The position numbers were made by a program, and so were the translations under genes. This document shows, piece by piece, positions 13,545 through 55,790 of a DNA stretch of 64,000 nt. Where the stretch lies: assembly GCF_054482595.1 (NCBI RefSeq), contig NZ_CM137008.1. One strand, written 5' to 3'. The notes below the pieces were generated by a model that saw nothing but the letters and a program-made list of their open reading frames with translations, was not told the origin of the DNA and did not search any database. Every line of letters begins with the position of its first letter. Positions within the stretch are counted from its first letter, which is position 1.

Positions 13545-16136
13545 ATGCATCAATCTGGTTCTGTTTCTCTTTGTCGTTCCGCAATATCTGTTCTGGTGGC
13601 TACAGCGTTATATTCACCCATAGCATTGGCATCAACAGTTGAGTATGGTGAGACAGTTGATGGTGTTGTCCTGGAAAAAGATATCCAGCTGGTTTATGGG
13701 ACCGCCAATAATACGAAAATCAATCCTGGCGGAGAACAGCATATTAAAGAATTTGGTATAAGTAGTAATACTGAAATTAACGGCGGGTATCAGTACATTG
13801 AAATGAATGGCACCGCAGAATACTCCGTATTAAATGATGGTTATCAAATTGTTCAAATGGGTGGCGCGGCAAACCAGACTACCCTCAATAATGGTGTGCT
13901 ACAGGTTTATGGCGCAGCGAATGATCCCACGATTAAAGGCGGGCGCTTAATCGTTGAAAAAGATGGGATTACCGTCCTTGCCGCTATCGAAAAGGGAGGA
14001 TTACTGGAGGTTAAAGAGGGGGGATTAGCGATTGCGGTAGATCAGAAAGCAGGCGGTGCTATTAAAGCAACCACGCGGGTCATGGAGGTATTCGGAACAA
14101 ACCGTCTCGGTCAGTTCGATATCAAGAATGGAATTGCAAACAATATGCTGTTGGAAAACGGCGGAAGTTTGCGAGTTGAAGAAAATGACTTCGCTTATAA
14201 TACTACTGTAGATAGTGGCGGCTTACTGGAGGTTATGGATGGCGGGACTGCAACTGGCGTTGATAAAAAAGCAGGCGGAAAATTAATTGTCTCAACGAAT
14301 GCGCTGGAAGTGAGTGGTACAAACAGTAAAGGCCAATTTAGTATAAAAGATGGTGTGTCAAAAAATTATGAACTGGATGATGGTTCCGGGCTTATTGTTA
14401 TGGAGGACACGCAGGCCATTGACACTATCCTTGATGAGCATGCCACTATGCAATCGCTGGGAAAGGATACTGGTACGAGAGTGCAGGCAAATGCGGTATA
14501 TGATCTCGGTCGATCAGATCAGAATGGAAGTATAACGTATTCCTCTAAAGCCATCTCTGAAAATATGGTTATCAACAATGGCCGCGCTAACGTCTGGGCT
14601 GGCACAATGGTTAACGTTTCAGTCAGAGGGAATGATGGCATTCTTGAGGTCATGAAGCCGCAAATAAATTATGCACCCGCAATGTTGGTGGGTAAGGTAG
14701 TGGTTTCTGAGGGCGCTTCTTTTAGAACGCATGGTGCCGTGGATACCAGCAAAGCGGACGTTTCGCTCGAAAATAGCGTATGGACCATCATTGCCGATAT
14801 CACTACGACGAACCAAAACACCCTCCTCAACTTAGCCAACCTTGCGATGTCTGACGCAAATGTGATTATGATGGATGAGCCAGTGACTCGTTCATCAGTG
14901 ACGGCAAGTGCGGAAAATTTCATTACGTTGACCACCAATACCCTGTCGGGAAACGGCAATTTTTATATGCGTACCGATATGGCTAATCATCAGAGCGATC
15001 AGCTCAACGTCACCGGTCAGGCAACAGGTGATTTCAAAATATTCGTGACGGACACCGGTGCCAGCCCGGCAGCAGGAGATAGCCTTACACTGGTAACAAC
15101 GGGCGGCGGTGATGCTGCATTTACGTTGGGCAATGCCGGAGGCGTTGTTGATATCGGTACGTATGAATATACCTTGCTGGATAATGGTAACCATAGCTGG
15201 AGTCTGGCAGAGAATCGCGCGCAAATTACCCCTTCAACCACTGATGTGCTGAATATGGCGGCCGCACAACCGCTGGTATTTGATGCAGAACTGGACACCG
15301 TGCGTGAGCGTCTTGGTAGCGTAAAAGGCGTTAGTTACGATACGGCGATGTGGAGTTCGGCAATTAACACCCGCAACAACGTGACCACTGATGCGGGAGC
15401 TGGTTTTGAGCAAACATTGACGGGCCTGACGCTCGGTATCGATAGCCGTTTCTCCCGTGAAGAAAGCAGCACAATTCGCGGCTTGTTCTTTGGTTACTCT
15501 CATTCTGATATTGGTTTTGATCGCGGCGGAAAAGGTAATATCGATAGCTATACCCTGGGGGCTTATGCCGGTTGGGAGCATCAGAACGGTGCCTATGTTG
15601 ATGGGGTGGTGAAAGTTGACCGTTTTGCCAACACCATCCATGGCAAGATGAGTAATGGGACAACAGCGTTTGGCGATTACAATAGTAACGGCGCGGGTGC
15701 TCATGTTGAGAGCGGGTTCCGTTGGGTTGACGGATTGTGGAGTGTTAGACCCTATCTGGCCTTTACCGGCTTTACCACAGATGGTCAGGACTACACGTTA
15801 TCAAACGGCATGCGCGCGGACGTGGGAAATACCCGGATATTACGCGCTGAAGCGGGAACGGCGGTAAGCTATCACATGGACCTGCAAAACGGTACGACGC
15901 TGGAACCCTGGCTGAAAGCCGCCGTACGTCAGGAATACGCCGATTCTAACCAGGTGAAAGTTAATGACGATGGCAAATTTAATAATGATGTGGCTGGAAC
16001 CCGTGGCGTTTATCAGGCTGGGATAAGGTCATCGTTTACCCCGACGTTAAGCGGTCATTTGTCAGTCAGCTATGGCAATGGCGCAGGGGTAGAATCGCCG
16101 TGGAATACTCAGGCGGGTGTGGTCTGGACGTTCTGA
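13545..16136 (+). CDS. yejO: AIDA-type autotransporter adhesin YejO, uninterrupted
   Basis: The 863-aa ORF has a signal peptide. Its passenger domain has repetitive GG/NxG beta-helix repeats. The C-terminal beta-barrel ends in VWTF. Confidence 0.9.
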   Translation: MHQSGSVSLCRSAISVLVATALYSPIALASTVEYGETVDGVVLEKDIQLVYGTANNTKINPGGEQHIKEFGISSNTEINGGYQYIEMNGTAEYSVLNDGYQIVQMGGAANQTTLNNGVLQVYGAANDPTIKGGRLIVEKDGITVLAAIEKGGLLEVKEGGLAIAVDQKAGGAIKATTRVMEVFGTNRLGQFDIKNGIANNMLLENGGSLRVEENDFAYNTTVDSGGLLEVMDGGTATGVDKKAGGKLIVSTNALEVSGTNSKGQFSIKDGVSKNYELDDGSGLIVMEDTQAIDTILDEHATMQSLGKDTGTRVQANAVYDLGRSDQNGSITYSSKAISENMVINNGRANVWAGTMVNVSVRGNDGILEVMKPQINYAPAMLVGKVVVSEGASFRTHGAVDTSKADVSLENSVWTIIADITTTNQNTLLNLANLAMSDANVIMMDEPVTRSSVTASAENFITLTTNTLSGNGNFYMRTDMANHQSDQLNVTGQATGDFKIFVTDTGASPAAGDSLTLVTTGGGDAAFTLGNAGGVVDIGTYEYTLLDNGNHSWSLAENRAQITPSTTDVLNMAAAQPLVFDAELDTVRERLGSVKGVSYDTAMWSSAINTRNNVTTDAGAGFEQTLTGLTLGIDSRFSREESSTIRGLFFGYSHSDIGFDRGGKGNIDSYTLGAYAGWEHQNGAYVDGVVKVDRFANTIHGKMSNGTTAFGDYNSNGAGAHVESGFRWVDGLWSVRPYLAFTGFTTDGQDYTLSNGMRADVGNTRILRAEAGTAVSYHMDLQNGTTLEPWLKAAVRQEYADSNQVKVNDDGKFNNDVAGTRGVYQAGIRSSFTPTLSGHLSVSYGNGAGVESPWNTQAGVVWTF

Positions 16137-16228
16137 TAACAGAAAATAAACAGGCTGTGATGTGTCACGGTCTGTTTATCGAATTAATTGCAGATATAAA
16201 AAAACCAACCGTAAGGGTTGGTTTTTTT

Positions 16229-16285
16229 GGGATTTTTGGTCGGCACGAGAGGATTTGAACCTCCGACCCCCGACACCCCATGACG
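16229..16285. repeat. attL: 57-bp duplicate of the 3' part of tRNA-Pro(GGG)
   Basis: This segment is identical to 55706-55762. It is preceded by a stem-loop AAAAACCAACCgtaaGGGTTGGTTTTT (16197-16228), which I read as the native proL terminator. Confidence 0.92.
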
Positions 16286-16654
16286 CCGCTTGAAAAATGC
16301 TGAGAACCGCGCAATCGCTGGTGGTAGGTACTATTCGCATGTATAAACAAACAGTGCTTTTTTAGCAAAATCCGTTCTATATACATCAATGACTTAGGTG
16401 GTGGTTTCTCCCCATGCCACAAGTAGTGTTGAGCTTTACTGAAGCCACTCCATTGGCCTCTACATGGAAACTAACAAGAAAATGTCAGTTGAAGGAGTTT
16501 TATAAATTCATGTTTTCTTCTTCAGGACAACCCATCACCCGCAGGCACCGCCTGCGGGAATTTTGCGACTGTGTTCGTTTTAAATTATAGATGCATCACC
16601 TGATATTCGTGACATACAAACTATGCATTAGCCAGATCTATACTGGATAAGTAT

Positions 16655-18406
16655 TCATTCTAATGCCTTCTCAATGTTTGTATTTATTTCTGATAAACTA
16701 TTAATTACACCGTCAAATACAAAATCAAGAGCGTTACTATAACCAATTGCTAAAGTAGCTGAATCAAATCCTAGTTTTGCTAAATGCTCAATTGATTTGT
16801 TTACTGCTTCATGAGCTTCAGCATTTCTTAAATCATTATTTATAAAAAACGATGCCACTTTTTTATTTTGAGTTTTAAAATCTGCAAATTCTGTGGCGTG
16901 CTTAAGTACAGATGAGTCTTCATTCTGTTCAATAATTGGCTCGATAAGGTTAAGTAATGATTGAAGTAGTTTCAGAGTTTGGAATTTTTCGATGTCTGAT
17001 TTATTAACACCCATTGCAATTAATAATTTTTTTAAAGAGCCTGATTTAATCTTATTTAAAATCTCATTAATAGTCTTACATCTATTCAAAAAATCCGGTT
17101 CTTGCATGTCATTTGGCGCAACAAATGCTAGCTTCTGCAATACTGGATAGTTAGAGATTCCTTCTGATTCTAACTCTGTGCGATTAATTTCTAAAATGTC
17201 TGCATTGGATAAAGTAACACCAATACTTCTACCAAGTGCTACAAGATTATCGCTAAGTCTTGCTAGTTCTCTAGCGAATTTAAATGTTTTAGATACAATA
17301 TGTTCTCCGCTTAAATCATTTTCAGTGATTTGGTTTGGATCCTTAGCATAATCAAAAACATGATAAACCTCCTCTTCAGGAATTCCTCGATACAGCTCAT
17401 AAAACGGAATTCTGACTAAGTTTCTTCCAACCCTGATGCAATCCCTAAAGGACCATTGTCCACCGTAGCTTGGAGCAACCCTATAAGAATAGCCGTCATA
17501 AAATGGAATAGCATCATATGAAGAATCTTTTTCATATTTAGTAAGGAAAGAGTCATTAACCAAGACATATTCATTGTTTCTGATGTCTTTGGCTCTTGAA
17601 CTCGTCATAGGAGTATCATATCCCGGCCATATTAATTCATCTATATTTAATTTTTTACAAAGTTCAGGCTGAACAGATTGTACACTTCCCCATGCTTGCA
17701 ATAATATATTGTCCCCATTATCTACTATCTCAAAATCTATCCAAGGCAAATCAAACTTGAAATGTTTTGACCCAGACAATAAGTTAATTACTTCCGTCGT
17801 TCTTTGAATACGTGCTTCATAGTAAAAAACACGTACACCAACATAATTTCTCATCCAGAGGTATTTTCTTAGATAATCATTACGCATTGTCCATTTTACA
17901 TCTTTATTACTTCTAAAGTAATACTCGCTTGACACATCCCCTTGTGCGACTCCATAATCGGGCAAGCTTACCTCATCGAAAATGACTTTTTGCTCAGTGT
18001 CACCTATAAGTCTGGGTTTTAGACCAAGCATCATCCATACATCTTCAGCTAAAAAAAATGAAAAGTGAGAACTATCACCCCAAGAAGCTACAATATACTT
18101 ATAACCTGAAATTGATAAACTATAATCTCTTGCTCCGCCTTTAGACCTACAGTCAGGAGTCGAAAATGAAACTAAACCATTAGTAGACTCCTGGAGAACT
18201 TTGATATTATTGATATCTTCTTGTGGTACGGTAGCCATTGTCATATGAGCACACTCATGATTATCTTTAAAAAGATTTTTTTCGTATCTATGTGTGACAA
18301 TGACCTCTTTCTGTGGATTAGTAATATCCTCTATAGATAATAAATCTTTAAGACCTTGAGGGATCTGATCTACTGGTAAAGGTAATTGTGATATATAGTC
18401 AATCAT
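16655..18406 (-). CDS. 583-aa accessory protein with an unrecognised N-terminal region and a C-terminal HEPN-like domain (R-N-A-E-A-H)
   Basis: The ORF is AT-rich. The Rx4H motif is encoded at 16811-16828 (AGA AAT GCT GAA GCT CAT on the minus strand) within an alpha-helical-looking C-terminus. The gene lies between attL and int. Confidence 0.75.
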   Translation of the reverse strand: MIDYISQLPLPVDQIPQGLKDLLSIEDITNPQKEVIVTHRYEKNLFKDNHECAHMTMATVPQEDINNIKVLQESTNGLVSFSTPDCRSKGGARDYSLSISGYKYIVASWGDSSHFSFFLAEDVWMMLGLKPRLIGDTEQKVIFDEVSLPDYGVAQGDVSSEYYFRSNKDVKWTMRNDYLRKYLWMRNYVGVRVFYYEARIQRTTEVINLLSGSKHFKFDLPWIDFEIVDNGDNILLQAWGSVQSVQPELCKKLNIDELIWPGYDTPMTSSRAKDIRNNEYVLVNDSFLTKYEKDSSYDAIPFYDGYSYRVAPSYGGQWSFRDCIRVGRNLVRIPFYELYRGIPEEEVYHVFDYAKDPNQITENDLSGEHIVSKTFKFARELARLSDNLVALGRSIGVTLSNADILEINRTELESEGISNYPVLQKLAFVAPNDMQEPDFLNRCKTINEILNKIKSGSLKKLLIAMGVNKSDIEKFQTLKLLQSLLNLIEPIIEQNEDSSVLKHATEFADFKTQNKKVASFFINNDLRNAEAHEAVNKSIEHLAKLGFDSATLAIGYSNALDFVFDGVINSLSEINTNIEKALE

Positions 18407-18728
18407 TATAATTTATGCCTTCTATGCTCAGTATTAAATTAAATATTAAATCGAAGTCATCCCCTTGGCAACCTAAATCGTTTGCTGCTAGTACTTCAGT
18501 GTAAGATTAATTATGCAATAGTTTGCAATTGAAATATCTTAAGCTGTAGAAAAATCAATCATACTGATACCTTTTACTTAAGTTTCACTCCTAGGCATGA
18601 TGAACGCTTCCTCAAGATACAGTATTACGCTATGCCTGCAACTTTCACTTGTGGCATAGTAAACCTTTCAATTTAGGTTTAGCCCTGTATAGTAGTAATG
18701 CACGCTTCAAATCTGAGCTAATAAAATT

Positions 18729-19913
18729 TTAACTGGCTTTAATTTCTCCATGTGGTACGACAACCCAATCAATATGGTTTTGCGTATAAATCTTGGTTGA
18801 CTTGGAGTCGCTGTGCGCCATTCGTGCTTGCGGATCGATACCTTGCTGATCGAAAAGATACGCTGCTAATGCTCTAATTTCGTGAAAGGTTGGTCTTTCA
18901 TCTATCGGTAGATTGTCGCATAAACCTAGCTTGTCACGTGTGGCTGAAAACGACCGGCTCAAATAGTCCGGTGCAACTTGAGTAGGGTGTGAAACCTCTT
19001 TGCTGCGTTTAACCTGCCGTTCAGGGATCCTGTGAACGACAAACGGACTGGCCACATTATCTCGGCTATCATCAATTATTCGTTTCAACTCTTCACCAAT
19101 CGGTATTGCAACGTGTGATGCCTCTTTTTTTTGCACTTTTTGCCTGTGGATGTAAAGCGTCCCATATATGCCATTTTGTGGTTGTTCGAACCAGACACAT
19201 CCACATATACCGTCTTTAGGTTCGCGAATTGAGTAACGGATTCGCGATACTTCGAGTCGTGCATGTGTAGTCTGCAATGCTAGGTCCATTGCTGTTCTTA
19301 ACCATGGTGCAGCGGCCTGCCTGATAGCTATAAAATGCTCGAGTGACAGGCGCCGTCTTTTCTTCTCATCAGTCCTACGCATTTTTTTTCTGATGGCCGG
19401 GTTATCCAGCATTAGTGATTCATCGACCGCATAAGAGAACAACTTTTTAAGGAAGCTGACCTTTCTGTTCTGCACATTTGCGGATGCGCAGGCATGATAT
19501 TTATTGATGTAGGTATTAACGTGTTCAAGTGCAATATCGCATGCTGGAACATTTACGAAAAACGCTTTTACGCGTAGAGCGTCATTTTTCCAGTCATCTA
19601 AGGTGCTCTGGGAAGGACGTTCGTCTTCGATAATCCGGGTCATTATGTGATCAACATGTTCAGCAAATGGTTTTGCTTCTCCGATAACACCGCCAGATTC
19701 TCTAATAAGATTATCTACTGATGGAGATAATTCTGGTCGCATCCTCAGGTTGTACTCTCTGGCGATTGCAATGGCTATTGCCCTATCCTTACCTATATTT
19801 TTCTTCTTTCCGGTAATAAGTGTGAATTTATAAACACCTCGATCTTTATCAAAAATCAGATAATCAGGAAGATGTCTGTATTCTTTTTTACGTGGCCTTG
19901 CCGCCATGGTCAC
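18729..19913 (-). CDS. int: tyrosine site-specific integrase
   Basis: The 394-aa ORF has a C-terminal HEIR ... HSDSKSTKIY catalytic signature. It is adjacent to attL. Confidence 0.93.
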   Translation of the reverse strand: MTMAARPRKKEYRHLPDYLIFDKDRGVYKFTLITGKKKNIGKDRAIAIAIAREYNLRMRPELSPSVDNLIRESGGVIGEAKPFAEHVDHIMTRIIEDERPSQSTLDDWKNDALRVKAFFVNVPACDIALEHVNTYINKYHACASANVQNRKVSFLKKLFSYAVDESLMLDNPAIRKKMRRTDEKKRRRLSLEHFIAIRQAAAPWLRTAMDLALQTTHARLEVSRIRYSIREPKDGICGCVWFEQPQNGIYGTLYIHRQKVQKKEASHVAIPIGEELKRIIDDSRDNVASPFVVHRIPERQVKRSKEVSHPTQVAPDYLSRSFSATRDKLGLCDNLPIDERPTFHEIRALAAYLFDQQGIDPQARMAHSDSKSTKIYTQNHIDWVVVPHGEIKAS

Positions 19914-23759: not shown

Positions 23760-24701
23760 ATGAGCACTAAATTAACCGGCTATGTATGGGATGGTTGCGC
23801 TGCGTCAGGCATGAAGTTATCCAGCGTGGCAATTATGGCCCGCCTGGCTGATTTCAGTAATGACGAAGGTGTGTGCTGGCCATCAATTGAAACCATTGCC
23901 CGCCAGATTGGCGCGGGGATGAGCACCGTCAGAACGGCTATCGCACGGCTGGAAGCAGAAGGCTGGTTAACTCGTAAGGCGCGTCGCCAGGGTAACCGCA
24001 ATGCGTCGAATGTTTATCAGCTTAACGTTGCGAAGCTTCAGGCAGCGGCATTTTCTCAACTGTCAGATTCTGACCCGTCAAAATCTGACGCATCAAAATC
24101 TGACCCGTCAAAATTTGATGCGTCGAAATCTGGCAAAAAAGCGGGTTTTCACCCGTCAGAATCTGGCGGGGATCCGTCAGTAAAATCAAAACATGATCCG
24201 TCAGATAAAAAAAACTCTCGTCCGGACGCTTCGCAACCGGACACGCAGATGGATGAACAGGATTTTTTAACTCGCCATCCTGATGCGGTTGTATTCAGCC
24301 CTAAAAAGCGCCAGTGGGGGACGCAGGATGATTTGACCTGCGCACAGTGGCTCTGGAAAAAAATCATCGCCCTGTACGAGCAGGCTGCCGAATGTGACGG
24401 CGAGGTGGTTCGTCCCAAAGAACCGAACTGGACAGCCTGGGCAAACGAAATTCGCCTGATGTGTGTGCAGGATGGTCGTACTCACAAACAAATCTGCGAG
24501 ATGTACAGCCGCGTCAGCCGCGATCCGTTCTGGTGCCGTAACGTGCTCAGCCCGTCGAAGCTGCGGGAAAAATGGGATGAGCTTTCCCTGCGCTTATCGC
24601 CGTCCGTAAGCACGTACACCGAAAAACGCGAAGACCCGTACTTCAAATCCAGTTACGACAACGTGGACTACAGCCAGATCCCGGCAGGATTCAGGGGGTG
24701 A
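23760..24701 (+). CDS. replication initiator (lambda O-like, N-terminal wHTH)
   Basis: The 313-aa ORF has a helix-turn-helix N-terminus. An internal tandem DPSKSD/ASKSD repeat corresponds to DNA iterons. Confidence 0.8.
   Translation: MSTKLTGYVWDGCAASGMKLSSVAIMARLADFSNDEGVCWPSIETIARQIGAGMSTVRTAIARLEAEGWLTRKARRQGNRNASNVYQLNVAKLQAAAFSQLSDSDPSKSDASKSDPSKFDASKSGKKAGFHPSESGGDPSVKSKHDPSDKKNSRPDASQPDTQMDEQDFLTRHPDAVVFSPKKRQWGTQDDLTCAQWLWKKIIALYEQAAECDGEVVRPKEPNWTAWANEIRLMCVQDGRTHKQICEMYSRVSRDPFWCRNVLSPSKLREKWDELSLRLSPSVSTYTEKREDPYFKSSYDNVDYSQIPAGFRG
24061..24212. repeat. probable phage replication origin: about 7 iterons (C)CGTCA(A/G)AATCTG inside the O-like gene, followed by an A-run
   Basis: Direct repeats start near 24075, 24088, 24105, 24120, 24152, 24174 and 24198. 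An ori embedded in the O gene parallels lambda. Confidence 0.7.
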
Positions 24702-28090: not shown

Positions 28091-28110
28091 GACGGCCATA
28101 TTGGCCGTCA
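28091..28110. terminator. bidirectional hairpin between Q and the convergent cargo operon
   Basis: The hairpin is GACGGCCAatatTGGCCGTC. It overlaps the stop codon of the 395-aa gene. Confidence 0.6.
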
Positions 28111-29295
28111 GCTAAATAAATATGTAATAGCATAAGGTGTAAGTAAAAAGTAGAATCTAAATGTAAGATATAAGCCACATAAAACTATAATTCCTAATGA
28201 GGCAAAAACAACTTTCTGAACAAGCAATCTTGTGGTTAAACTATCAAATGTATCCTTTATATCTTCGTAAATAGCCTTGAAGTTATATTCTGCTTGTTGT
28301 TTTTTATGATTTAACTCATCATTTATTGCTGTTAAAGTTTGCCATTGATTAAATAGAACAAATATAATCATAATAGTGAAGAACAATGCACCCAACACTA
28401 CAGCTGTGTTTATTAATGCTTGACTATCCCAACCATTAGCCTGCTTCATTTGAGTCGCAACGATAATTGTTGCGACGGGGATACCTAATATCTGATTTTG
28501 TATGTCACTGAATACTTTATGTATTTTCCCCATCTCTTCTATTTTGGCTACTCGTAACTGATCTAGTATTTTCTCGTAAGAAAAACCAGAAACGAATACT
28601 TTGTATCCTTTTTGATAACTTTCATAAAGTTGTCCTAAATCCCTTAACATGAAGGAAAAAGAGGTTTCTTTAGTTTTAGATTCACATGATGATTTTATAC
28701 TACTTGCTAAAATAGTAAGTTTTTGATCTTTATGCGTATCTTCTGCAAAGTTTGCGATCAAATTATGAATCAGATCTCCATTAACATTCATAAGATCATC
28801 GCTAGAATAATTTACTGGAATTTTTAGTACGTTGGATTCGACGAATACCAATTCAAAATTTGTTTCATCTAAATAAGCAGAACAATCTTTGAATAAAGTA
28901 ATTAAGCTCAAAACATCTCTGTACTTGGATATAATAGCAGGCGACTTTTTATCCCTGTTGTGATAATTAAGTTCGATTATAAAGAAGTTACTGGCTTCCT
29001 TTATCCTATTTTTAGGATTTTTTAAATACTCATTAAAAGAGAAATGTAGCTGCCCCAATCGTAATTTGGGGGGGGTTATATGTAAGGTTATAGTTTGGCC
29101 TAACTCAATGTTGCCAGATTCAAGGGTGATGCCAAAATCATGGGGATTCTCTGTGATATCGTTGATGATGTCACAGAGCTCCTCGTTTGAAAGAATGAGT
29201 GATGCTTCAGATAGGGTACCTGCAAATGTAGCGGCCTTGTAAATAGTCACTAAGTCTTTGAAGGTTCTCTGGTTTTTACTGCTCATCCTCTTCAC
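28108..29295 (-). CDS. 395-aa protein with a soluble N-terminal region and 2-3 C-terminal TM helices (candidate effector)
   Basis: The gene is AT-rich and overlaps the upstream gene by 20 nt (or 11 nt if ATG 29286 is used). Hydrophobic segments are ALINTAVVLGALFFTIMIIFVLF and VVFASLGIIVLCGLYLTFRFYFLL. Confidence 0.75.
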   Translation of the reverse strand: MKRMSSKNQRTFKDLVTIYKAATFAGTLSEASLILSNEELCDIINDITENPHDFGITLESGNIELGQTITLHITPPKLRLGQLHFSFNEYLKNPKNRIKEASNFFIIELNYHNRDKKSPAIISKYRDVLSLITLFKDCSAYLDETNFELVFVESNVLKIPVNYSSDDLMNVNGDLIHNLIANFAEDTHKDQKLTILASSIKSSCESKTKETSFSFMLRDLGQLYESYQKGYKVFVSGFSYEKILDQLRVAKIEEMGKIHKVFSDIQNQILGIPVATIIVATQMKQANGWDSQALINTAVVLGALFFTIMIIFVLFNQWQTLTAINDELNHKKQQAEYNFKAIYEDIKDTFDSLTTRLLVQKVVFASLGIIVLCGLYLTFRFYFLLTPYAITYLFS

Positions 29296-30310
29296 CTAAT
29301 TCTGATAAAATCTCTGATCTTAGCGTATCCGGAATCTCGGTAAGTATCAATTTATCGTTTTCTGAATCATAAAGAACGCTGCCATCATGCAAGGCCGCAC
29401 GCTCGAATTTCAGAGACCAATGTTTGGACTTTCCTTTGAAACTAACAAGCCCACGTATAACGTTGCCATCAGGCACGAACCCATCAGAGAACTCCAGATC
29501 GTCATTGGTTAACTTTTCAACTAACAACTCAGGAGCAGTTGGCCATATCTCGTTTGCAAAAATTTGAGTGTCGAAAGTTTCACCAGAACGATTTAAATTT
29601 TTTAATTTTTCATGAGCCTTATTTAGGAACTCTTCACGTGCCTCTGGTTCAAAACCTCTTTCAGTAGCAAATTCTAAAAGTGCATTCCGTAATTTTGTTG
29701 TTTCTTGTTTGGCAATTAGAATATCGTTGCAACCTAAAAACTTTTTGAAATAACCTGCTACTGAATTTTGCCCCTTTAGAAAGCTAATATATCTCTCTTT
29801 GCCATTCTGGCGCCCAGTTAAGTCAATTCGTCCCGCTACTCGAAGTTTAGCAATGTCTAGATATTCACTTTCTTGAATTTCAAAATCGTGGACTGAAGAG
29901 CCAACTGCTGAAGTTAGGATTGCAACCATCAAATAATGATTTCCATTTACCTCATTATGGGCAATTATTACATAACCACCAGTAGACATTGATTCATCAT
30001 CGGCTCTGGCTTTTAAATGATTGATCATTCGGATACTAGTATCATAAAAACTATGTGTTTTATTTACGAAATAATCATCAACGATATTACCCATAGGGTA
30101 ACTATCGCGGTCATCTTCAAATTTCCCATATCCTTTACCTGCTCTCCCAGAGTACCTTTCAGTAAGTGCGTTAGAGAGGTCTTTTGATGCTTGCTGAACA
30201 GGTTTTTCTGAAGGACAAGGAATAATGGTGGCTAACCCCTGTTGTTCCTTGTTCATAATGTGAACAATAAACTTATGAGTGATATTAGTGGGGGTCGCTG
30301 ATGCAGTCAT
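29276..30310 (-). CDS. NdpA/YejK-family nucleoid-associated-protein homologue (344 aa)
   Basis: An AAGGA Shine-Dalgarno lies 7 nt upstream. The protein aligns with host YejK encoded in this same window. YLDIAKLRVAGRIDLTGRQNGKERYISFLKGQNSVAGYFKKFLG aligns with [65 protein letters not shown] aligns with [17 protein letters not shown]. Confidence 0.85.
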   Translation of the reverse strand: MTASATPTNITHKFIVHIMNKEQQGLATIIPCPSEKPVQQASKDLSNALTERYSGRAGKGYGKFEDDRDSYPMGNIVDDYFVNKTHSFYDTSIRMINHLKARADDESMSTGGYVIIAHNEVNGNHYLMVAILTSAVGSSVHDFEIQESEYLDIAKLRVAGRIDLTGRQNGKERYISFLKGQNSVAGYFKKFLGCNDILIAKQETTKLRNALLEFATERGFEPEAREEFLNKAHEKLKNLNRSGETFDTQIFANEIWPTAPELLVEKLTNDDLEFSDGFVPDGNVIRGLVSFKGKSKHWSLKFERAALHDGSVLYDSENDKLILTEIPDTLRSEILSELGEEDEQ

Positions 30311-33190: not shown

Positions 33191-33685
33191 ATGGCTGGAA
33201 CGGCGGGGCGTTCCGGGCGTCGCCCCAAGCCAACGGCGCGCAAGGCGCTGGCCGGAAACCCCGGCAAGCGAGCCCTGAATAAAGATGAACCTGTTTTTAC
33301 GCCCATCAAAGGTGTTGAGCCACCGGAGTGGTTCGCTGAAGAAGATCTCCCTCTCGCCACGATCATGTGGCAACTGACAACCAAAGAACTCTGCGGTCAG
33401 GGCCTGCTGTGCGTGACTGACCTCGCGGTGCTTGAGCGGTGGTGTGTGGCCTATGAGTTCTGGCGACGTGCCGTGAAAAATATTGCCAGACAGGGCAACA
33501 CCATCACCGGTGCAATGGGCGGTATGGTCAAAAATCCTGAGCTGACCGCCAAAAAAGAACAGGAGTCCGAGATGAGCAGTACGGGGGCAATGCTCGGACT
33601 CGACCCCAGCAGCCGCCAGCGTCTGATTGGCCTGGCGGGGCAGAAGAAAGCCACTAACCCGTTTCTGAAAATTATCGAATCATGA
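33191..33685 (+). CDS. terminase small subunit, P27 family
   Basis: The ORF begins [27 protein letters not shown], with a GGAG 8 nt upstream. Confidence 0.88.
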
Positions 33686-35415
33686 GCCGGAAATCTTATC
33701 CCAACGTAAATGCTGCCAATCAGTATGCCCGGGATGTCGTTCGCGGAAAGATTGTGGCCTGCCAGTTTGTGATTCAGGCCTGCCAGCGCCATCTTGATGA
33801 CCTGATGGCGGAAAAAAGTAAGTCGTTTCGTTACCGCTTCGACAAGGACCTGGCTGAACGGGCCGCCAAATTTATTCAGCTGTTGCCGCATACCAAGGGT
33901 GAGTGGGCATTCAAACGGATGCCCATCACGCTGGAGCCGTGGCAGCTCTTTGTGATCTGCTGTGCGTTTGGCTGGGTCAATAAAGGTACCCGGCTGCGCC
34001 GCTTCCGGGAGGTGTATACCGAAATCCCCCGTAAGAACGGCAAATCGGCAATCTCTGCCGGTGTCGCCCTGTATTGTTTTGCCTGTGATAACGAGTTTGG
34101 CGCGGAAGTGTATTCCGGTGCCACGACAGAGAAACAGGCGTGGGAAGTCTTTCGCCCGGCGCGACTGATGTGTAAACGCACACCCATGCTGACGGAAGCG
34201 TTCGGGATTGAGGTTAACGCCTCAAACATGAACCGTCCGGAGGATGGCGCGCGGTTTGAGCCGCTGATCGGTAACCCCGGTGATGGTTCATCACCCCACT
34301 GTGCGGTGGTGGATGAATATCACGAGCATGCCACCGATGCACTTTACACCACGATGCTTACCGGGATGGGGGCGCGACGTCAGCCACTGATGTGGGCCAT
34401 CACCACCGCCGGGTACAACATTGAGGGGCCGTGCTACGACAAGCGGCGGGAAGTTCTCGAGATGCTCAACGGTTCGGTACCCAACGATGAACTGTTCGGG
34501 ATCATCTATACCGTTGACGAAGGCGATGACTGGACCGACCCGCAGGTGCTGGAAAAAGCCAATCCAAATATTGGCGTGTCGGTTTATCGCGAATTTTTGT
34601 TAAGTCAGCAGCAGCGTGCGAAAAATAACGCCCGTCTGGCAAACGTCTTTAAAACAAAACACCTCAATATCTGGGTGTCGGCGCGTTCGGCGTATTTCAA
34701 CCTGGTGAGCTGGCAGAGCTGCGAGGATAAATCACTGACCCTTGAGCAGTTCGAGGGGCAGCCGTGCATTCTGGCCTTTGACCTGGCGCGTAAGCTGGAT
34801 ATGAACAGCATGGCGCGACTTTATACCCGCGAGATTGACGGTAAAACGCATTACTACAGTGTGGCCCCGCGTTTCTGGGTACCGTATGACACGGTGTACA
34901 GCGTCGAGAAAAATGAAGATCGACGGACAGCCGAACGCTTTCAGAAATGGGTGGAAATGGGCGTTCTGACCGTTACCGATGGTGCGGAAGTGGATTATCG
35001 CTACATCCTCGAGGAGGCCAAAGCGGCGAACAAAATCAGCCCGGTCAGTGAGTCACCCATCGACCCCTTCGGGGCGACCGGGTTGTCACATGACCTTGCT
35101 GATGAAGACCTGAATCCCGTCACTATCGTCCAGAACTTCACCAATATGTCCGACCCGATGAAAGAGCTGGAAGCGGCGATTGAATCGGGACGTTTTCATC
35201 ATGACGGCAATCCCATCATGACCTGGTGTATCGGCAACGTGGTCGGCAAAACCATTCCGGGTAACGATGATGTGGTGAAGCCCGTCAAAGAGCAGGCGGA
35301 AAACAAAATCGATGGTGCAGTTGCGCTGATTATGGCGGTTGGCAGAGCCATGCTGTACGAGAAAGAAGACACGCTGTCTGACCACATTGAGTCCTATGGG
35401 ATCCGCTCGCTTTAA
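33682..35415 (+). CDS. terminase large subunit
   Basis: The 577-aa ORF has an ATPase Walker-like motif (IPRKNGKS) and a nuclease C-terminus. It is coupled to terS. Confidence 0.92.
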
Positions 35416-52980: not shown

Positions 52981-54870
52981 TTAATCGTGTTTTGGCCATA
53001 CTTTCAATGCAATTTCCCCCAACTTTTTACCCCGCTCCAGGATTTCATCCTCATCCCATTTATCCTTAACTATAAGTGGAATGTTCAGTCGTAGATTGGT
53101 GTGGACGATGAGAGCATCACGTTTTTTCAGAAATACAGCATTCTGAACAGAACGGTTTACGCTAAGGTTAAGCAAAGTTAGATTTCCCAACGTAGCTATC
53201 GCTTGTTGCCGTTTCCTTACCAGTAGCTGTTCAGGGGTAAGATCGGTTCCAGACAGAACAATTTGGTTCAATACCGTAGCATCTGAATTTGTCACCATAT
53301 GACCATTTTCGAGAGGCCAACAGGAAAACCAACTTTGAGGCATAAGATGATCGATATCGAGATTGGAAAGATTTGGACCATCAGGCTTCTCTGTCTTCAC
53401 TTGGCGACAAAGTTCTCTTTCAAGTTCCGTTAACATTGAGCGCATTTTCGGTGCGTCGAGCCTGCCAGGATAAAGTGGAGCATTGATGCAAGCATTGAGA
53501 AATTCTGAGTCACCAGGCCAACGTGAGGCTTCGCCATTTAAGCTATTGAGGATATTACGTAACTCAACACTGGAAATTTCCGTTTTAGACAAGTGCCGCA
53601 ATACATTCATAAATACATTGTTGTAATTCTTTGGCGTCAGGCCACATACGGCTCTTCGTACTACGTAGGAGACAAGATCATTATACATGGCTGCTTTCTC
53701 ATCATCAGCGATGTTAGCTATCGAAATGAACAAAGCAAGCGGATAAAGTGTCGTCACATCATAGTCTGCGATGCGATATCCAAAGTGTGAGATGGGGGTT
53801 GTGCCAAAACCATCAACCAATTCTTTATATTGTGATGCATATTGTTTGAGGCGCTTTACTTGCAGATCTGCTCGTTGTGAAGACAAGTCCTTACTTACAT
53901 AATCACGATACTCATTGTAAAGGCGAGACAGATCAATTTCACGCTGCCTTTCTGATTGCAATGTCGCATGTACTAGCCACTCCATGCGTGGTTTATTAAT
54001 ACGTCCACGGCGTTGCTTTTCCGACCAGTATTTATCTTCAAAGCTCTTCCACTCATTTTCATATAATTCAATAGCATTAATATTTTCATGCTCAGCGCAC
54101 ATAAAGATATAGTTGCGAATAAGATCCGTGGCATGAAGTTCCGCCCCTCGCCCATTTAATGTTTCAAAAATTATTTGGGCATCATCTTCAGCTTCGAGAA
54201 ATATGCTTACCAGTTTCAGATCTGTTAAGACAGCCTCAATTAGAGCTACAGCATTTTCTTGTGGTGAGTGGTTTTCTATTTTAATCCATTTTATAAAGGC
54301 TTCAGTAAAAAAACATAATGCTTCTAGTGATGGCGGGTGATTAAAATGCTTACGCAACGTACCATGCTGCGTGAAACTATCAGAGAATACGTCCCGGAGA
54401 TCGTCAATATTTTCAACATTAAAACTTTGAATAAAATGAGTTTGATCCCGAAAAGTTGGCCATAGTTTGAAGCGTTCTACTTCTTTATTTCGCATTGTGT
54501 CTTCGTTTGAGTTTTTCAGGCAAGGCGAAATGAGAGCCTCTAAGCTGAAAAGATCCGTAGCACGTAATGCTAATCGGATGGATGCCAGAACATATTGAAG
54601 AGTGGTCAATCGTTGCTGACCATCAATAATATGTATGGAATCTACACCTAATAATCCTTTTTTTGATTGAGGTTCCAGTACAACCGCACCAAGGAAATGG
54701 GGAGTTGGTTTTGTACCCGAGAGCCGGGATTGTGCTTTCTCTAGGATATCCTCCAGTAGAGCTGACCATTGGTCTTGCTGAGTCCATACATAGGCACGTT
54801 GATAGAATGGAACACAGTATTGTCGGCGGTCTTGAAAAAGTTGTTGGACAGTTAGCGTCTCGGATTTCAT
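52981..54870 (-). CDS. DUF262 (ParB-like NTPase) plus DUF1524 (His-Me/HNH nuclease) protein, GmrSD/BrxU-like type IV restriction candidate
   Basis: The N-terminus has FYQRAYVW and IIDGQQRLTT motifs. The C-terminus has DIDHLMPQSW ... LGNLTLLNLSVNRSVQN. The start was chosen at MKSETLTVQQ; the ORF track extends to 54930. Confidence 0.85.
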   Translation of the reverse strand: MKSETLTVQQLFQDRRQYCVPFYQRAYVWTQQDQWSALLEDILEKAQSRLSGTKPTPHFLGAVVLEPQSKKGLLGVDSIHIIDGQQRLTTLQYVLASIRLALRATDLFSLEALISPCLKNSNEDTMRNKEVERFKLWPTFRDQTHFIQSFNVENIDDLRDVFSDSFTQHGTLRKHFNHPPSLEALCFFTEAFIKWIKIENHSPQENAVALIEAVLTDLKLVSIFLEAEDDAQIIFETLNGRGAELHATDLIRNYIFMCAEHENINAIELYENEWKSFEDKYWSEKQRRGRINKPRMEWLVHATLQSERQREIDLSRLYNEYRDYVSKDLSSQRADLQVKRLKQYASQYKELVDGFGTTPISHFGYRIADYDVTTLYPLALFISIANIADDEKAAMYNDLVSYVVRRAVCGLTPKNYNNVFMNVLRHLSKTEISSVELRNILNSLNGEASRWPGDSEFLNACINAPLYPGRLDAPKMRSMLTELERELCRQVKTEKPDGPNLSNLDIDHLMPQSWFSCWPLENGHMVTNSDATVLNQIVLSGTDLTPEQLLVRKRQQAIATLGNLTLLNLSVNRSVQNAVFLKKRDALIVHTNLRLNIPLIVKDKWDEDEILERGKKLGEIALKVWPKHD

Positions 54871-55294
54871 GGTATACCTGTAAGCGACATTGTACAAAAG
54901 TGAGGAGTTAATCTGATTTAGAACAATCATTTTATTTTGCTATGATACAACGTATTTGTTACCGGTTAAGCAAAAAACGCGTCTGAACGCTGACGTTTTA
55001 GGGCTTTACTGGTTATTCTTTCTTATCTCTTCATCATCCCATCGGCATCCTGTCGAGGTTGTTGACTTGTTGTTATTTATTTTGTCTAGGCGCTGTTTAA
55101 TTATTATTGATAGAACTGATGGTGAGAGGTGATTGAAACCGTAGGCACGTCGTTTGCAAGGACGTGCTACGACTGGCTGGTGAATTTCCGATAGTGCGAG
55201 TATTGAATGATTTCCTACGTGCTAACTAGTGAACAAACAACTCTTCAGTAGACTCTCAGGTATCATTCAGAGTTTCCTGAACGAAAGTTTTAGC

Positions 55295-55472: not shown

Positions 55473-55705
55473 AACACTTCTTTTGTACTGCGTTTGTAGA
55501 CAGTATTATTCTTATCTGTGTAAATAAACAGTATCAAGACTTCGTTTTAGCTGCATAAGAAAAAAGAGATGGATACATTCGGAAAGCTTTTGATGGTGGT
55601 AGGCTAAGTGAATAGCCTAAAGGTGTTTTACCCCAATTATTCCCCGGTATTTCTCCGCATAAAAAACAATCATAAAAAAACCAGCCATAATAGGCTGGTT
55701 TTTAA

Positions 55706-55762
55706 GGGATTTTTGGTCGGCACGAGAGGATTTGAACCTCCGACCCCCGACACCCCATGACG
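55706..55762. repeat. attR: 57-bp repeat forming the 3' part of the intact proL
   Basis: It is identical to 16229-16285. Confidence 0.92.
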
Positions 55763-55790
55763 GTGCGCTACCAGGCTGCGCTACGTGCCG
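55714..55790 (-). tRNA. proL: tRNA-Pro (anticodon GGG)
   Basis: The reverse complement reads CGGCACGTAGCGCAGCCTGGTAGCGCACCGTCATGGGGTGTCGGGGGTCGGAGGTTCAAATCCTCTCGTGCCGACCA. It folds by hand into a cloverleaf, with anticodon loop AUGGGGU and a terminal CCA. Confidence 0.93.

Follow-up and report, generated by a model that had tools for sequence, protein, structure and literature searches.

A prophage cassette with a single gene

The subject of this analysis is a 583-amino-acid open reading frame (ORF) at positions 16655..18406 (minus strand, ATG start, stop codon included) of a 64,000-nucleotide stretch of contig NZ_CM137008.1 (RefSeq assembly GCF_054482595.1), referred to below as the window. 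Its product, WP_105289942.1, bears the RefSeq label 'hypothetical protein' and belongs to an unnamed family of ~585-amino-acid proteins, which we examine here as a candidate single-protein anti-phage system. A first-pass annotation of the window had singled out an AT-rich 583-amino-acid ORF, and this description is borne out exactly with respect to coordinates, length and base composition (GC content of 0.34-0.35 over the ORF vs. 0.40-0.57 in the surrounding DNA).

The ORF lies at one end of an Escherichia coli prophage of ~39.5 kb, the end adjoining yejO. The left prophage junction, beside yejO, is marked by a 70-nt direct repeat (att repeat, 16216..16285) made up of a partial 3' part of tRNA-Pro and adjacent bases; it is 96% identical to positions 55693-55762, where an intact tRNA-Pro(ggg) gene (55714..55790, minus strand, identified by ARAGORN and Rfam) represents both the integration target and the other junction. 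The integrase (18729..19913, minus strand; annotated as 'phage integrase Arm DNA-binding domain-containing protein' in a 99%-identical record) is the conserved flank to the right of this cargo slot. The prophage is complete, with a lambda O-like initiator, large terminase (33682-35415), portal, major head protein, tail sheath, tape measure and baseplate.

A comparison (blastn) with two related prophages (L002 and L003) delimits the acquired segment: similarity breaks at 16414/16415 and resumes at 18677 or 18738, the flanks being 94-97% identical to the related prophages at the same site. Because these prophages match on both sides and differ in between, we define a swapped 2.26-kb cargo cassette, 16415..18676 (minus strand), which consists of the ORF with 240 bp downstream and 270 bp upstream and contains no other ORF. 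The cassette has the properties of a moron, namely a discrete insert, conserved flanks, a deviant composition and a different content in related prophages, and its gene is carried by just two of the 5,426 complete E. coli genomes (strains LP50-1 and 50EVA, annotated as hypothetical protein). The gene is, thus, a rare, horizontally acquired cassette with one ORF that has the att site on one side and the integrase on the other; the att repeat, the integrase and the cassette boundaries together confirm the single-gene cargo slot between attL and integrase that had been proposed for it.

The same slot in the related prophages is occupied by unrelated DNA with a gene of unknown function encoding 239 amino acids (L002 2526-3245, minus strand) or 289 amino acids (L003 2726-3595, plus strand). 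Neither has a Pfam or PADLOC match, and both are further candidate cargo.

The cassette appears to bring its own expression signals. The upstream region (18407..18676, minus strand) contains a sigma-70-like site (18471->18442) and, ~11 nt ahead of the start codon, a GAAGG ribosome-binding site; a native sigma-70 promoter within the cassette is inferred from these elements, the count of promoter-like matches upstream of the ORF being not above shuffle expectation. Approximately 105 nt past the ORF stop, and still within the cassette, a GC-rich inverted repeat, CCCGCAGG-N5-CCTGCGGG (16526-16549), is followed by AATTTT on the plus strand. This inverted repeat, which was not called by a terminator scan, may be a terminator for transcription arriving from either side.

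A large unnamed family with invariant motif residues

A word-indexed search yielded 333 homologues at E<=1e-3, and an exhaustive profile search at least 433 representatives at 50% identity. Family members are spread over Gamma-, Alpha- and Betaproteobacteria, are nearly all 580-600 amino acids long and are aligned over profile positions ~100-585. No domain shuffling (either half alone or with other partners) was detected among the best 150 of the 433 representatives, which have the full-length layout or are fragments. Searches of the window protein against Pfam, NCBIfam, PADLOC and PHROGs returned noise only (Peptidase_M19 with E 0.1, RbfA with E 0.047, phrog_302 with E 0.061). A tblastn search of 50,697 phage genomes gave no match, and the corresponding search of plasmids gave eight distant copies. 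The accession was absent from the literature and supplements searched, as were signature peptides of the protein from the DefensePredictor tables, the 584-amino-acid row in the latter being an unrelated P-loop protein. As judged from these searches, this is a large unnamed family absent from Pfam, NCBIfam, PADLOC and PHROGs.

The residues of interest form an R-x4-H motif, R527-N-A-E-A-H532, encoded at 16811..16828 (minus strand), and the codons of R527 (16826-16828) and H532 (16811-16813) are located precisely where the first-pass annotation had placed this RNAEAH sequence as a ribonuclease (RNase) motif of the HEPN type. Taken by itself, the presence of such a pattern is no evidence for HEPN, at least by the statistics of composition: R-x(4-6)-H occurs in 73% and R-x4-H in 36% of residue shuffles of the 583-amino-acid protein. 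What gives the motif its significance, despite these high shuffle frequencies, is conservation. R527 and H532 are invariant both in an alignment of 47 relatives down to 40% identity (A1) and in an alignment of 64 relatives down to ~20% identity (A3). In the latter, only nine positions are invariant (L129, W260, D285, L288, W318, R325, R442, R527 and H532); H532 is the sole invariant one of 10 histidines, and R527 is among the three invariant ones of 25 arginines.

A two-part predicted fold

A confident full-length AlphaFold2 model built on the family alignment (mean predicted local distance difference test score, pLDDT, of 87) divides the protein into a beta-rich part (~1-355) and an all-helical part (~360-583). 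The all-helical C-terminal domain, taken as residues 356-583 (16658..17341, minus strand), carries the conserved residues R442, R527, H532, D561 and D565 and is a putative diverged HEPN RNase; modelled alone, it reaches a pLDDT of 89.8 and a predicted TM-score (pTM) of 0.87. The anticipated helical C-terminal region with an R-x4-H motif is, therefore, found in the model as well as in the family, where the motif is invariant. In both AlphaFold models, a helix (515-530; in the domain model, 515-527) ends with R527, and the loop that comes next contains H532; short helices then lead to a long terminal helix (557-582). The HEPN motif is described as lying where helix 3 ends and the 3-4 loop starts in an all-helical bundle (PMC3710099), so the predicted placement of R527 at a helix end and of H532 in the following loop appears HEPN-like. 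The fold matches of the C-terminal domain, all of them weak, include Cas13b (8wf8), YggD/MtlR (3c8g), LsoA (5hy3) and RnlA (7aex), as well as HepT (5yep_B, 112/133 residues), YutE (1ylm, 117/143) and a HEPN toxin (8xdj, 104/130). Foldseek against the Protein Data Bank (PDB) gave nothing at E<=1e-3. These model-based matches would fit a HEPN core that has diverged and carries insertions, though they are not proof of it.

The beta-rich N-terminal region (residues 1-355; 17342..18406, minus strand), a putative sensor, carries the conserved residues W109, R132, D144, W260, D285, E292, W318, R325 and R328. Every profile library was silent on these ~355 residues; the first-pass annotation had rightly called the N-terminal part unrecognised, while giving its length as roughly 500 residues. 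The only clear structural relative of this region is a part of the phage-terminase receptor SeAvs3 (8DGC), with 143 aligned residues. This match disappears when residues 356-583 are searched alone and is, therefore, assigned to residues 1-355; Avs3 comes without Cap4, restriction-endonuclease or P-loop chains among the fold matches. A C-terminal sensor rich in beta strands, common to Avs2 and Avs3, binds the ATPase of the terminase (PMC13601566), and, provided that the match is real, this sensor is in our estimate rather probably the matched part of Avs3, given that 8DGC is probably the sole representative of that domain in the structure library. The conserved N-terminal residues fit a binding surface or pocket. 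A PD-(D/E)xK (Cap4-like) nuclease in the N-terminal region was also considered and rejected as the leading interpretation, there being neither a conserved lysine or ExK nor a Cap4 or restriction-endonuclease fold match.

Several observations weigh against a sensor joined to a HEPN RNase. A link between the C-terminal domain and HEPN is made by no sequence method: Pfam, NCBIfam, PADLOC and PHROGs are silent, and the profile check suggested for the C-terminal half gave no significant match. When 110 relatives were scanned singly, isolated sub-threshold matches to MtlR (E 0.017) and Cas13d (E 0.014) appeared, both of them HEPN-type, neither significant and each in a single relative. When PDB sequences were searched with the protein and with the family and C-terminal profiles, no HEPN chain and nothing meaningful was returned, and an hhalign comparison of the C-terminal profile with an MtlR-family (HEPN-superfamily) protein gave a probability of 0.6%. 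The residue after the motif arginine, expected to be polar, is Asn in this subfamily, as had been noted, and among the 64 relatives it is Q in 24, N in 12, I in 12 and V in 7 (Q/N ~56%); the expectation fails for ~30% of the wider family, in which Ile or Val takes this position. As for the N-terminal region, the part of Avs3 that it matches was deduced by elimination and not read from an alignment, and its conserved charged residues D144, D285, R325 and R328 could form a catalytic site instead of one for binding.

These points lend themselves to a different division of labour within a defence protein, in which the effector is an N-terminal enzyme (e.g., a divergent nuclease using D144, D285, E292, R325 and R328) and the C-terminal domain serves oligomerisation, regulation or ligand binding, with R527 and H532 binding a nucleotide or phosphate and not catalysing RNA cleavage. 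Invariant charged residues are as many in the N-terminal as in the C-terminal region, Avs3 as the sole structural relative does contain a nuclease domain, and the likeness of the C-terminal domain to HEPN is weak and invisible to profiles. We nevertheless consider an N-terminal effector improbable, and the C-terminal domain to be, with reasonable probability, a strongly diverged HEPN ribonuclease.

Genomic contexts and the case for a defence function

Thirteen loci of family members were inspected for neighbouring genes, and no conserved partner, antitoxin or operon was found across these contexts. Mobile elements and recognised defence genes recur among them. A homologue 67% identical to the window protein lies in a P4-like satellite of Enterobacter (locus L004). 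In a P2-like prophage of Serratia, the homologue is located between GpA and portal and beside a GmrSD_N gene; the GpA-GpQ region is the main P2 defence hotspot, att-integrase slots being minor hotspots (PMC13586616). A Paracoccus prophage carries its homologue as a moron in the structural module, between tail and head genes, where its neighbours, PIN_10 and HTH/DUF433 proteins (L009 9803-10893, minus strand), look like a toxin-antitoxin pair. Other homologues lie beside RT+SLATT and HNH genes (Shewanella), a Ppl-like ATPase (Pseudomonas; E 3e-31) or SIR2+pAgo (a metagenomic contig). In Vibrio vulnificus, a 1257-amino-acid Upx-like protein (L021 8812-12585, plus strand) directly follows the family member in an island ending with an integrase; Upx is a terminase-sensing nuclease. 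Homologues on Burkholderia and Sphingomonas plasmids adjoin integrases, the copy on the Burkholderia glumae plasmid NZ_CP099586.1 (L013 8001-9698) being probably decayed, as it was recovered in four tblastn pieces with a lone 147-nt coding sequence listed there, in a gene table that is incomplete. The remaining three loci are uninformative.

The Enterobacter locus has an additional feature in the form of a gene for MtlR ('mannitol repressor', HEPN-superfamily) directly before the homologue (L004 7277-7783). An 88%-identical MtlR-like copy in 11 E. coli genomes (L023 7078-9114) is followed by an unrelated 420-amino-acid protein of unknown function in a tRNA-Thr island; the MtlR-like gene seems to pair with interchangeable downstream genes.

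The prophage in the window itself provides a further context. At its attR-proximal end, with a local GC content of 0.38-0.44, it encodes a 649-amino-acid GmrSD-family type IV restriction endonuclease (52981-54930, minus strand; GmrSD_N with E 7e-34, GmrSD_C with E 8e-20), a second and recognisable defence cargo. The two opposite att-proximal ends of one prophage are, thus, occupied by a recognised defence gene and by the 583-amino-acid ORF, respectively.

Overall, these contexts are the pattern of a self-contained, often exchanged defence gene. They can be set against a different reading, an accessory gene without an anti-phage role that serves the mobile element or the host in some other way, such as a toxin for addiction or stabilisation, a factor in competition between bacteria, or a protein for RNA processing or regulation that is carried along by mobile elements. 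No phenotype is known for the family, the uninformative loci include one homologue near toxin/immunity genes of a type VI secretion system and one that has a MazE-like gene beside it and housekeeping genes around it, and several neighbours are of unknown function. Against a non-defence role stand the lack of a conserved antitoxin-like or partner gene in the 13 contexts, the lack of a signal peptide or secretion-associated domain match in the protein, the repeated siting beside recognised defence genes and in canonical P2 and P4 hotspots, and the GmrSD gene at the other end of the same prophage. We give such a role a small chance and regard a defence function of the family as likely.

Proposed mechanism and significance

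Combining the domain architecture with the genomic contexts, we favour, with moderate confidence, the interpretation of the window gene as a self-contained, horizontally acquired abortive-infection cassette encoding a single-protein sensor joined to a probable HEPN effector. With respect to the two options offered by the first-pass annotation, an ApeA-like defence gene or a new N-terminal sensor variant, the latter is the better one, since the ~355-residue N-terminal region is unrecognised by every profile library.

The mechanism that we propose is modelled on ApeA, HepS, Tha and DARNA; the RNase activity, RNA target, trigger and abortive outcome of the 583-amino-acid protein are inferred. The protein would be made constitutively in the lysogen from its own promoter and would remain inactive until a protein of an infecting phage binds its N-terminal region. 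The resemblance of this region to Avs3 makes the large terminase the leading trigger candidate, another ATPase-fold protein being an option, and this is the least secure step of the proposed mechanism. Through binding, the protein would change its conformation or oligomeric state and its HEPN sites would gain competence; as in HEPN enzymes, two R-x4-H copies would be expected to pair into one composite RNase site that needs no metal. The RNAs then cut might be tRNA anticodon loops or others of the cell, translation would stop, and no progeny would be released. As the resident prophage encodes a terminase of its own (33682-35415), it would need to escape recognition, in the way that Gifsy-1 does for HepS.

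If confirmed, this interpretation would add a widespread defence family (at least 433 clusters at 50% identity) that Pfam, NCBIfam, PADLOC and PHROGs currently miss, and would provide a minimal example in which a large sensor of the protein type is coupled straight to a HEPN RNase. It would also bear on the question of self-avoidance, i.e., how a prophage with a sensor for a conserved phage protein can still propagate, which was recently answered for HepS and Gifsy-1. From a practical standpoint, the cassette (16415-18676) is small enough for direct cloning with its native 5' region.

Other features of the prophage and its flank

Six tandem 15-bp repeats (TCAAAATCTGACCCG-like) at 24048-24170 lie within the ORF of the lambda O-like initiator (23760-24701, plus strand); they are almost certainly iterons of the prophage replication origin. 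Two overlapping genes at 28108-30310 (minus strand) encode a 395-amino-acid protein without a Pfam match and a 344-amino-acid homologue of the NA37 nucleoid-associated protein (E 8e-69). This pair, which may be another accessory module, runs against the remaining large ORFs listed for the prophage from ~23.7 to 51.5 kb, these being plus-strand. Outside the prophage, the yejO autotransporter gene is an uninterrupted 863-amino-acid ORF in the window (13545-16136, plus strand), while it is a RefSeq pseudogene (internal stop or frameshift) in all three related genomes inspected.

Comparison with known systems

The partial resemblance to Avs3 does not make the protein an Avs, because it has no NTPase: neither Pfam nor PADLOC gave an NTPase match, no P-loop chain appeared among the fold matches, and the protein is just 583 amino acids long. 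Unlike Avs2 and Avs3, it has no STAND NTPase, TPR array or Cap4-like nuclease. A more specific version of our interpretation would make the family a STAND-less pattern-recognition receptor, with an Avs2/Avs3-type terminase-binding sensor fused directly to a HEPN RNase and without the NTPase oligomerisation switch; RNA cleavage would be turned on once the sensor recognises the large terminase of a phage or a similar ATPase-fold protein. Reuse of an Avs sensor without a STAND ATPase has been described for the Avs7 sensor, in Dsr1 and in a HEPN-like protein of Streptomyces (PMC13581612). The published STAND-less precedent, thus, concerns the Avs7 sensor and not the C-terminal sensor of Avs2/3, and we consider the STAND-less receptor doubtful, if worth stating. 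Were it true, terminase sensors would join Avs7/Dsr1 as cases of Avs sensors reused outside STAND proteins, and the gating of a HEPN nuclease by protein recognition could be studied in a compact system of 583 amino acids.

A second set of comparisons is with HEPN abortive-infection proteins encoded by prophages, HepS of Gifsy-1 and Tha of S. aureus prophages, which are triggered by phage structural proteins (PMC13043305, PMC11087260). Like these, the protein in the window is a prophage cargo that presumably acts alone; in HepS and Tha, a HEPN R-x4-H effector stays switched off before a phage protein is sensed, and the prophage carrying it has to escape its own sensor. HepS, which cleaves tRNA once triggered, differs in that it is small and consists of HEPN alone (motif R100-H105), with no separate large sensor region, and no sequence similarity is detectable. 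The proposed logic of a sensor plus HEPN, with an abortive outcome via tRNA cleavage, is also that of the HEPN anticodon nucleases DARNA and PrrC/RloC, whose sensing parts are separate. The HEPN domain of DARNA is, however, N-terminal (catalytic H122) and is switched on by single-stranded DNA that the phage SSB presents, and PrrC and RloC both use an ABC ATPase.

AbiD/AbiF membership, which the first-pass annotation had raised, finds no support in the form of an Abi_2, Abi_C or PADLOC AbiD/F match to the protein or its relatives. A different connection is suggested by Aernus, a validated anti-phage system composed of a large protein and a mannitol-repressor-like gene in a P4 hotspot (PMC13586616). 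The MtlR-family gene directly before the Enterobacter homologue is like the Aernus arrangement, whereas the window cassette has no MtlR-like gene. That the Enterobacter homologue, or the family, is Aernus is possible but unproven; if true, an anti-phage phenotype would already exist for a close relative.

The closest parallel in overall design is ApeA (Gao_Ape; bioRxiv 10.64898/2026.01.26.701840), a HEPN anticodon nuclease that acts as a single protein and is switched on by deoxydinucleotides. Outright membership, as a divergent ApeA, is very improbable: the similar size and layout (the Ec2ApeA HEPN domain comprises residues 335-583 with the catalytic R502, in a single-gene system), the diverged HEPN domain with insertions whose closest structural homologue is HepT 5YEP (bioRxiv 10.64898/2026.01.26.701840), also matched here, and the older description of ApeA-NTD1 as ~300 mostly beta-strand residues with conserved aromatics are outweighed by the failure of Pfam (HEPN_Apea, ApeA_NTD1) and PADLOC ApeA models to match the window protein (at E<=10) or any of 110 relatives (at E<=0.1-1), and by the solved N-terminal part of ApeA, a catenin-like domain followed by a PafA-like Mid domain, in place of which the region studied here has a match to part of Avs3 and nothing else. 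The catenin-like and Mid domains of ApeA form a small-molecule (dinucleotide) pocket together with its HEPN domain, where the present protein is beta-rich and resembles part of Avs3. What they share is one protein of ~580 amino acids without a partner gene, found on mobile elements and in defence islands, and a diverged HEPN-type C-terminal domain of ~250 amino acids with insertions and a catalytic arginine near residue 500 (putative in the present family). Cleavage of tRNA by a single-protein HEPN defence system has precedents in ApeA (bioRxiv 10.64898/2026.01.26.701840), HepS and DARNA. Overall, in its proposed mode of action, the protein would work like the ApeA-type single-protein HEPN systems, yet it is a non-member that joins a comparable C-terminal domain to an N-terminal region of a different, Avs3-like kind.

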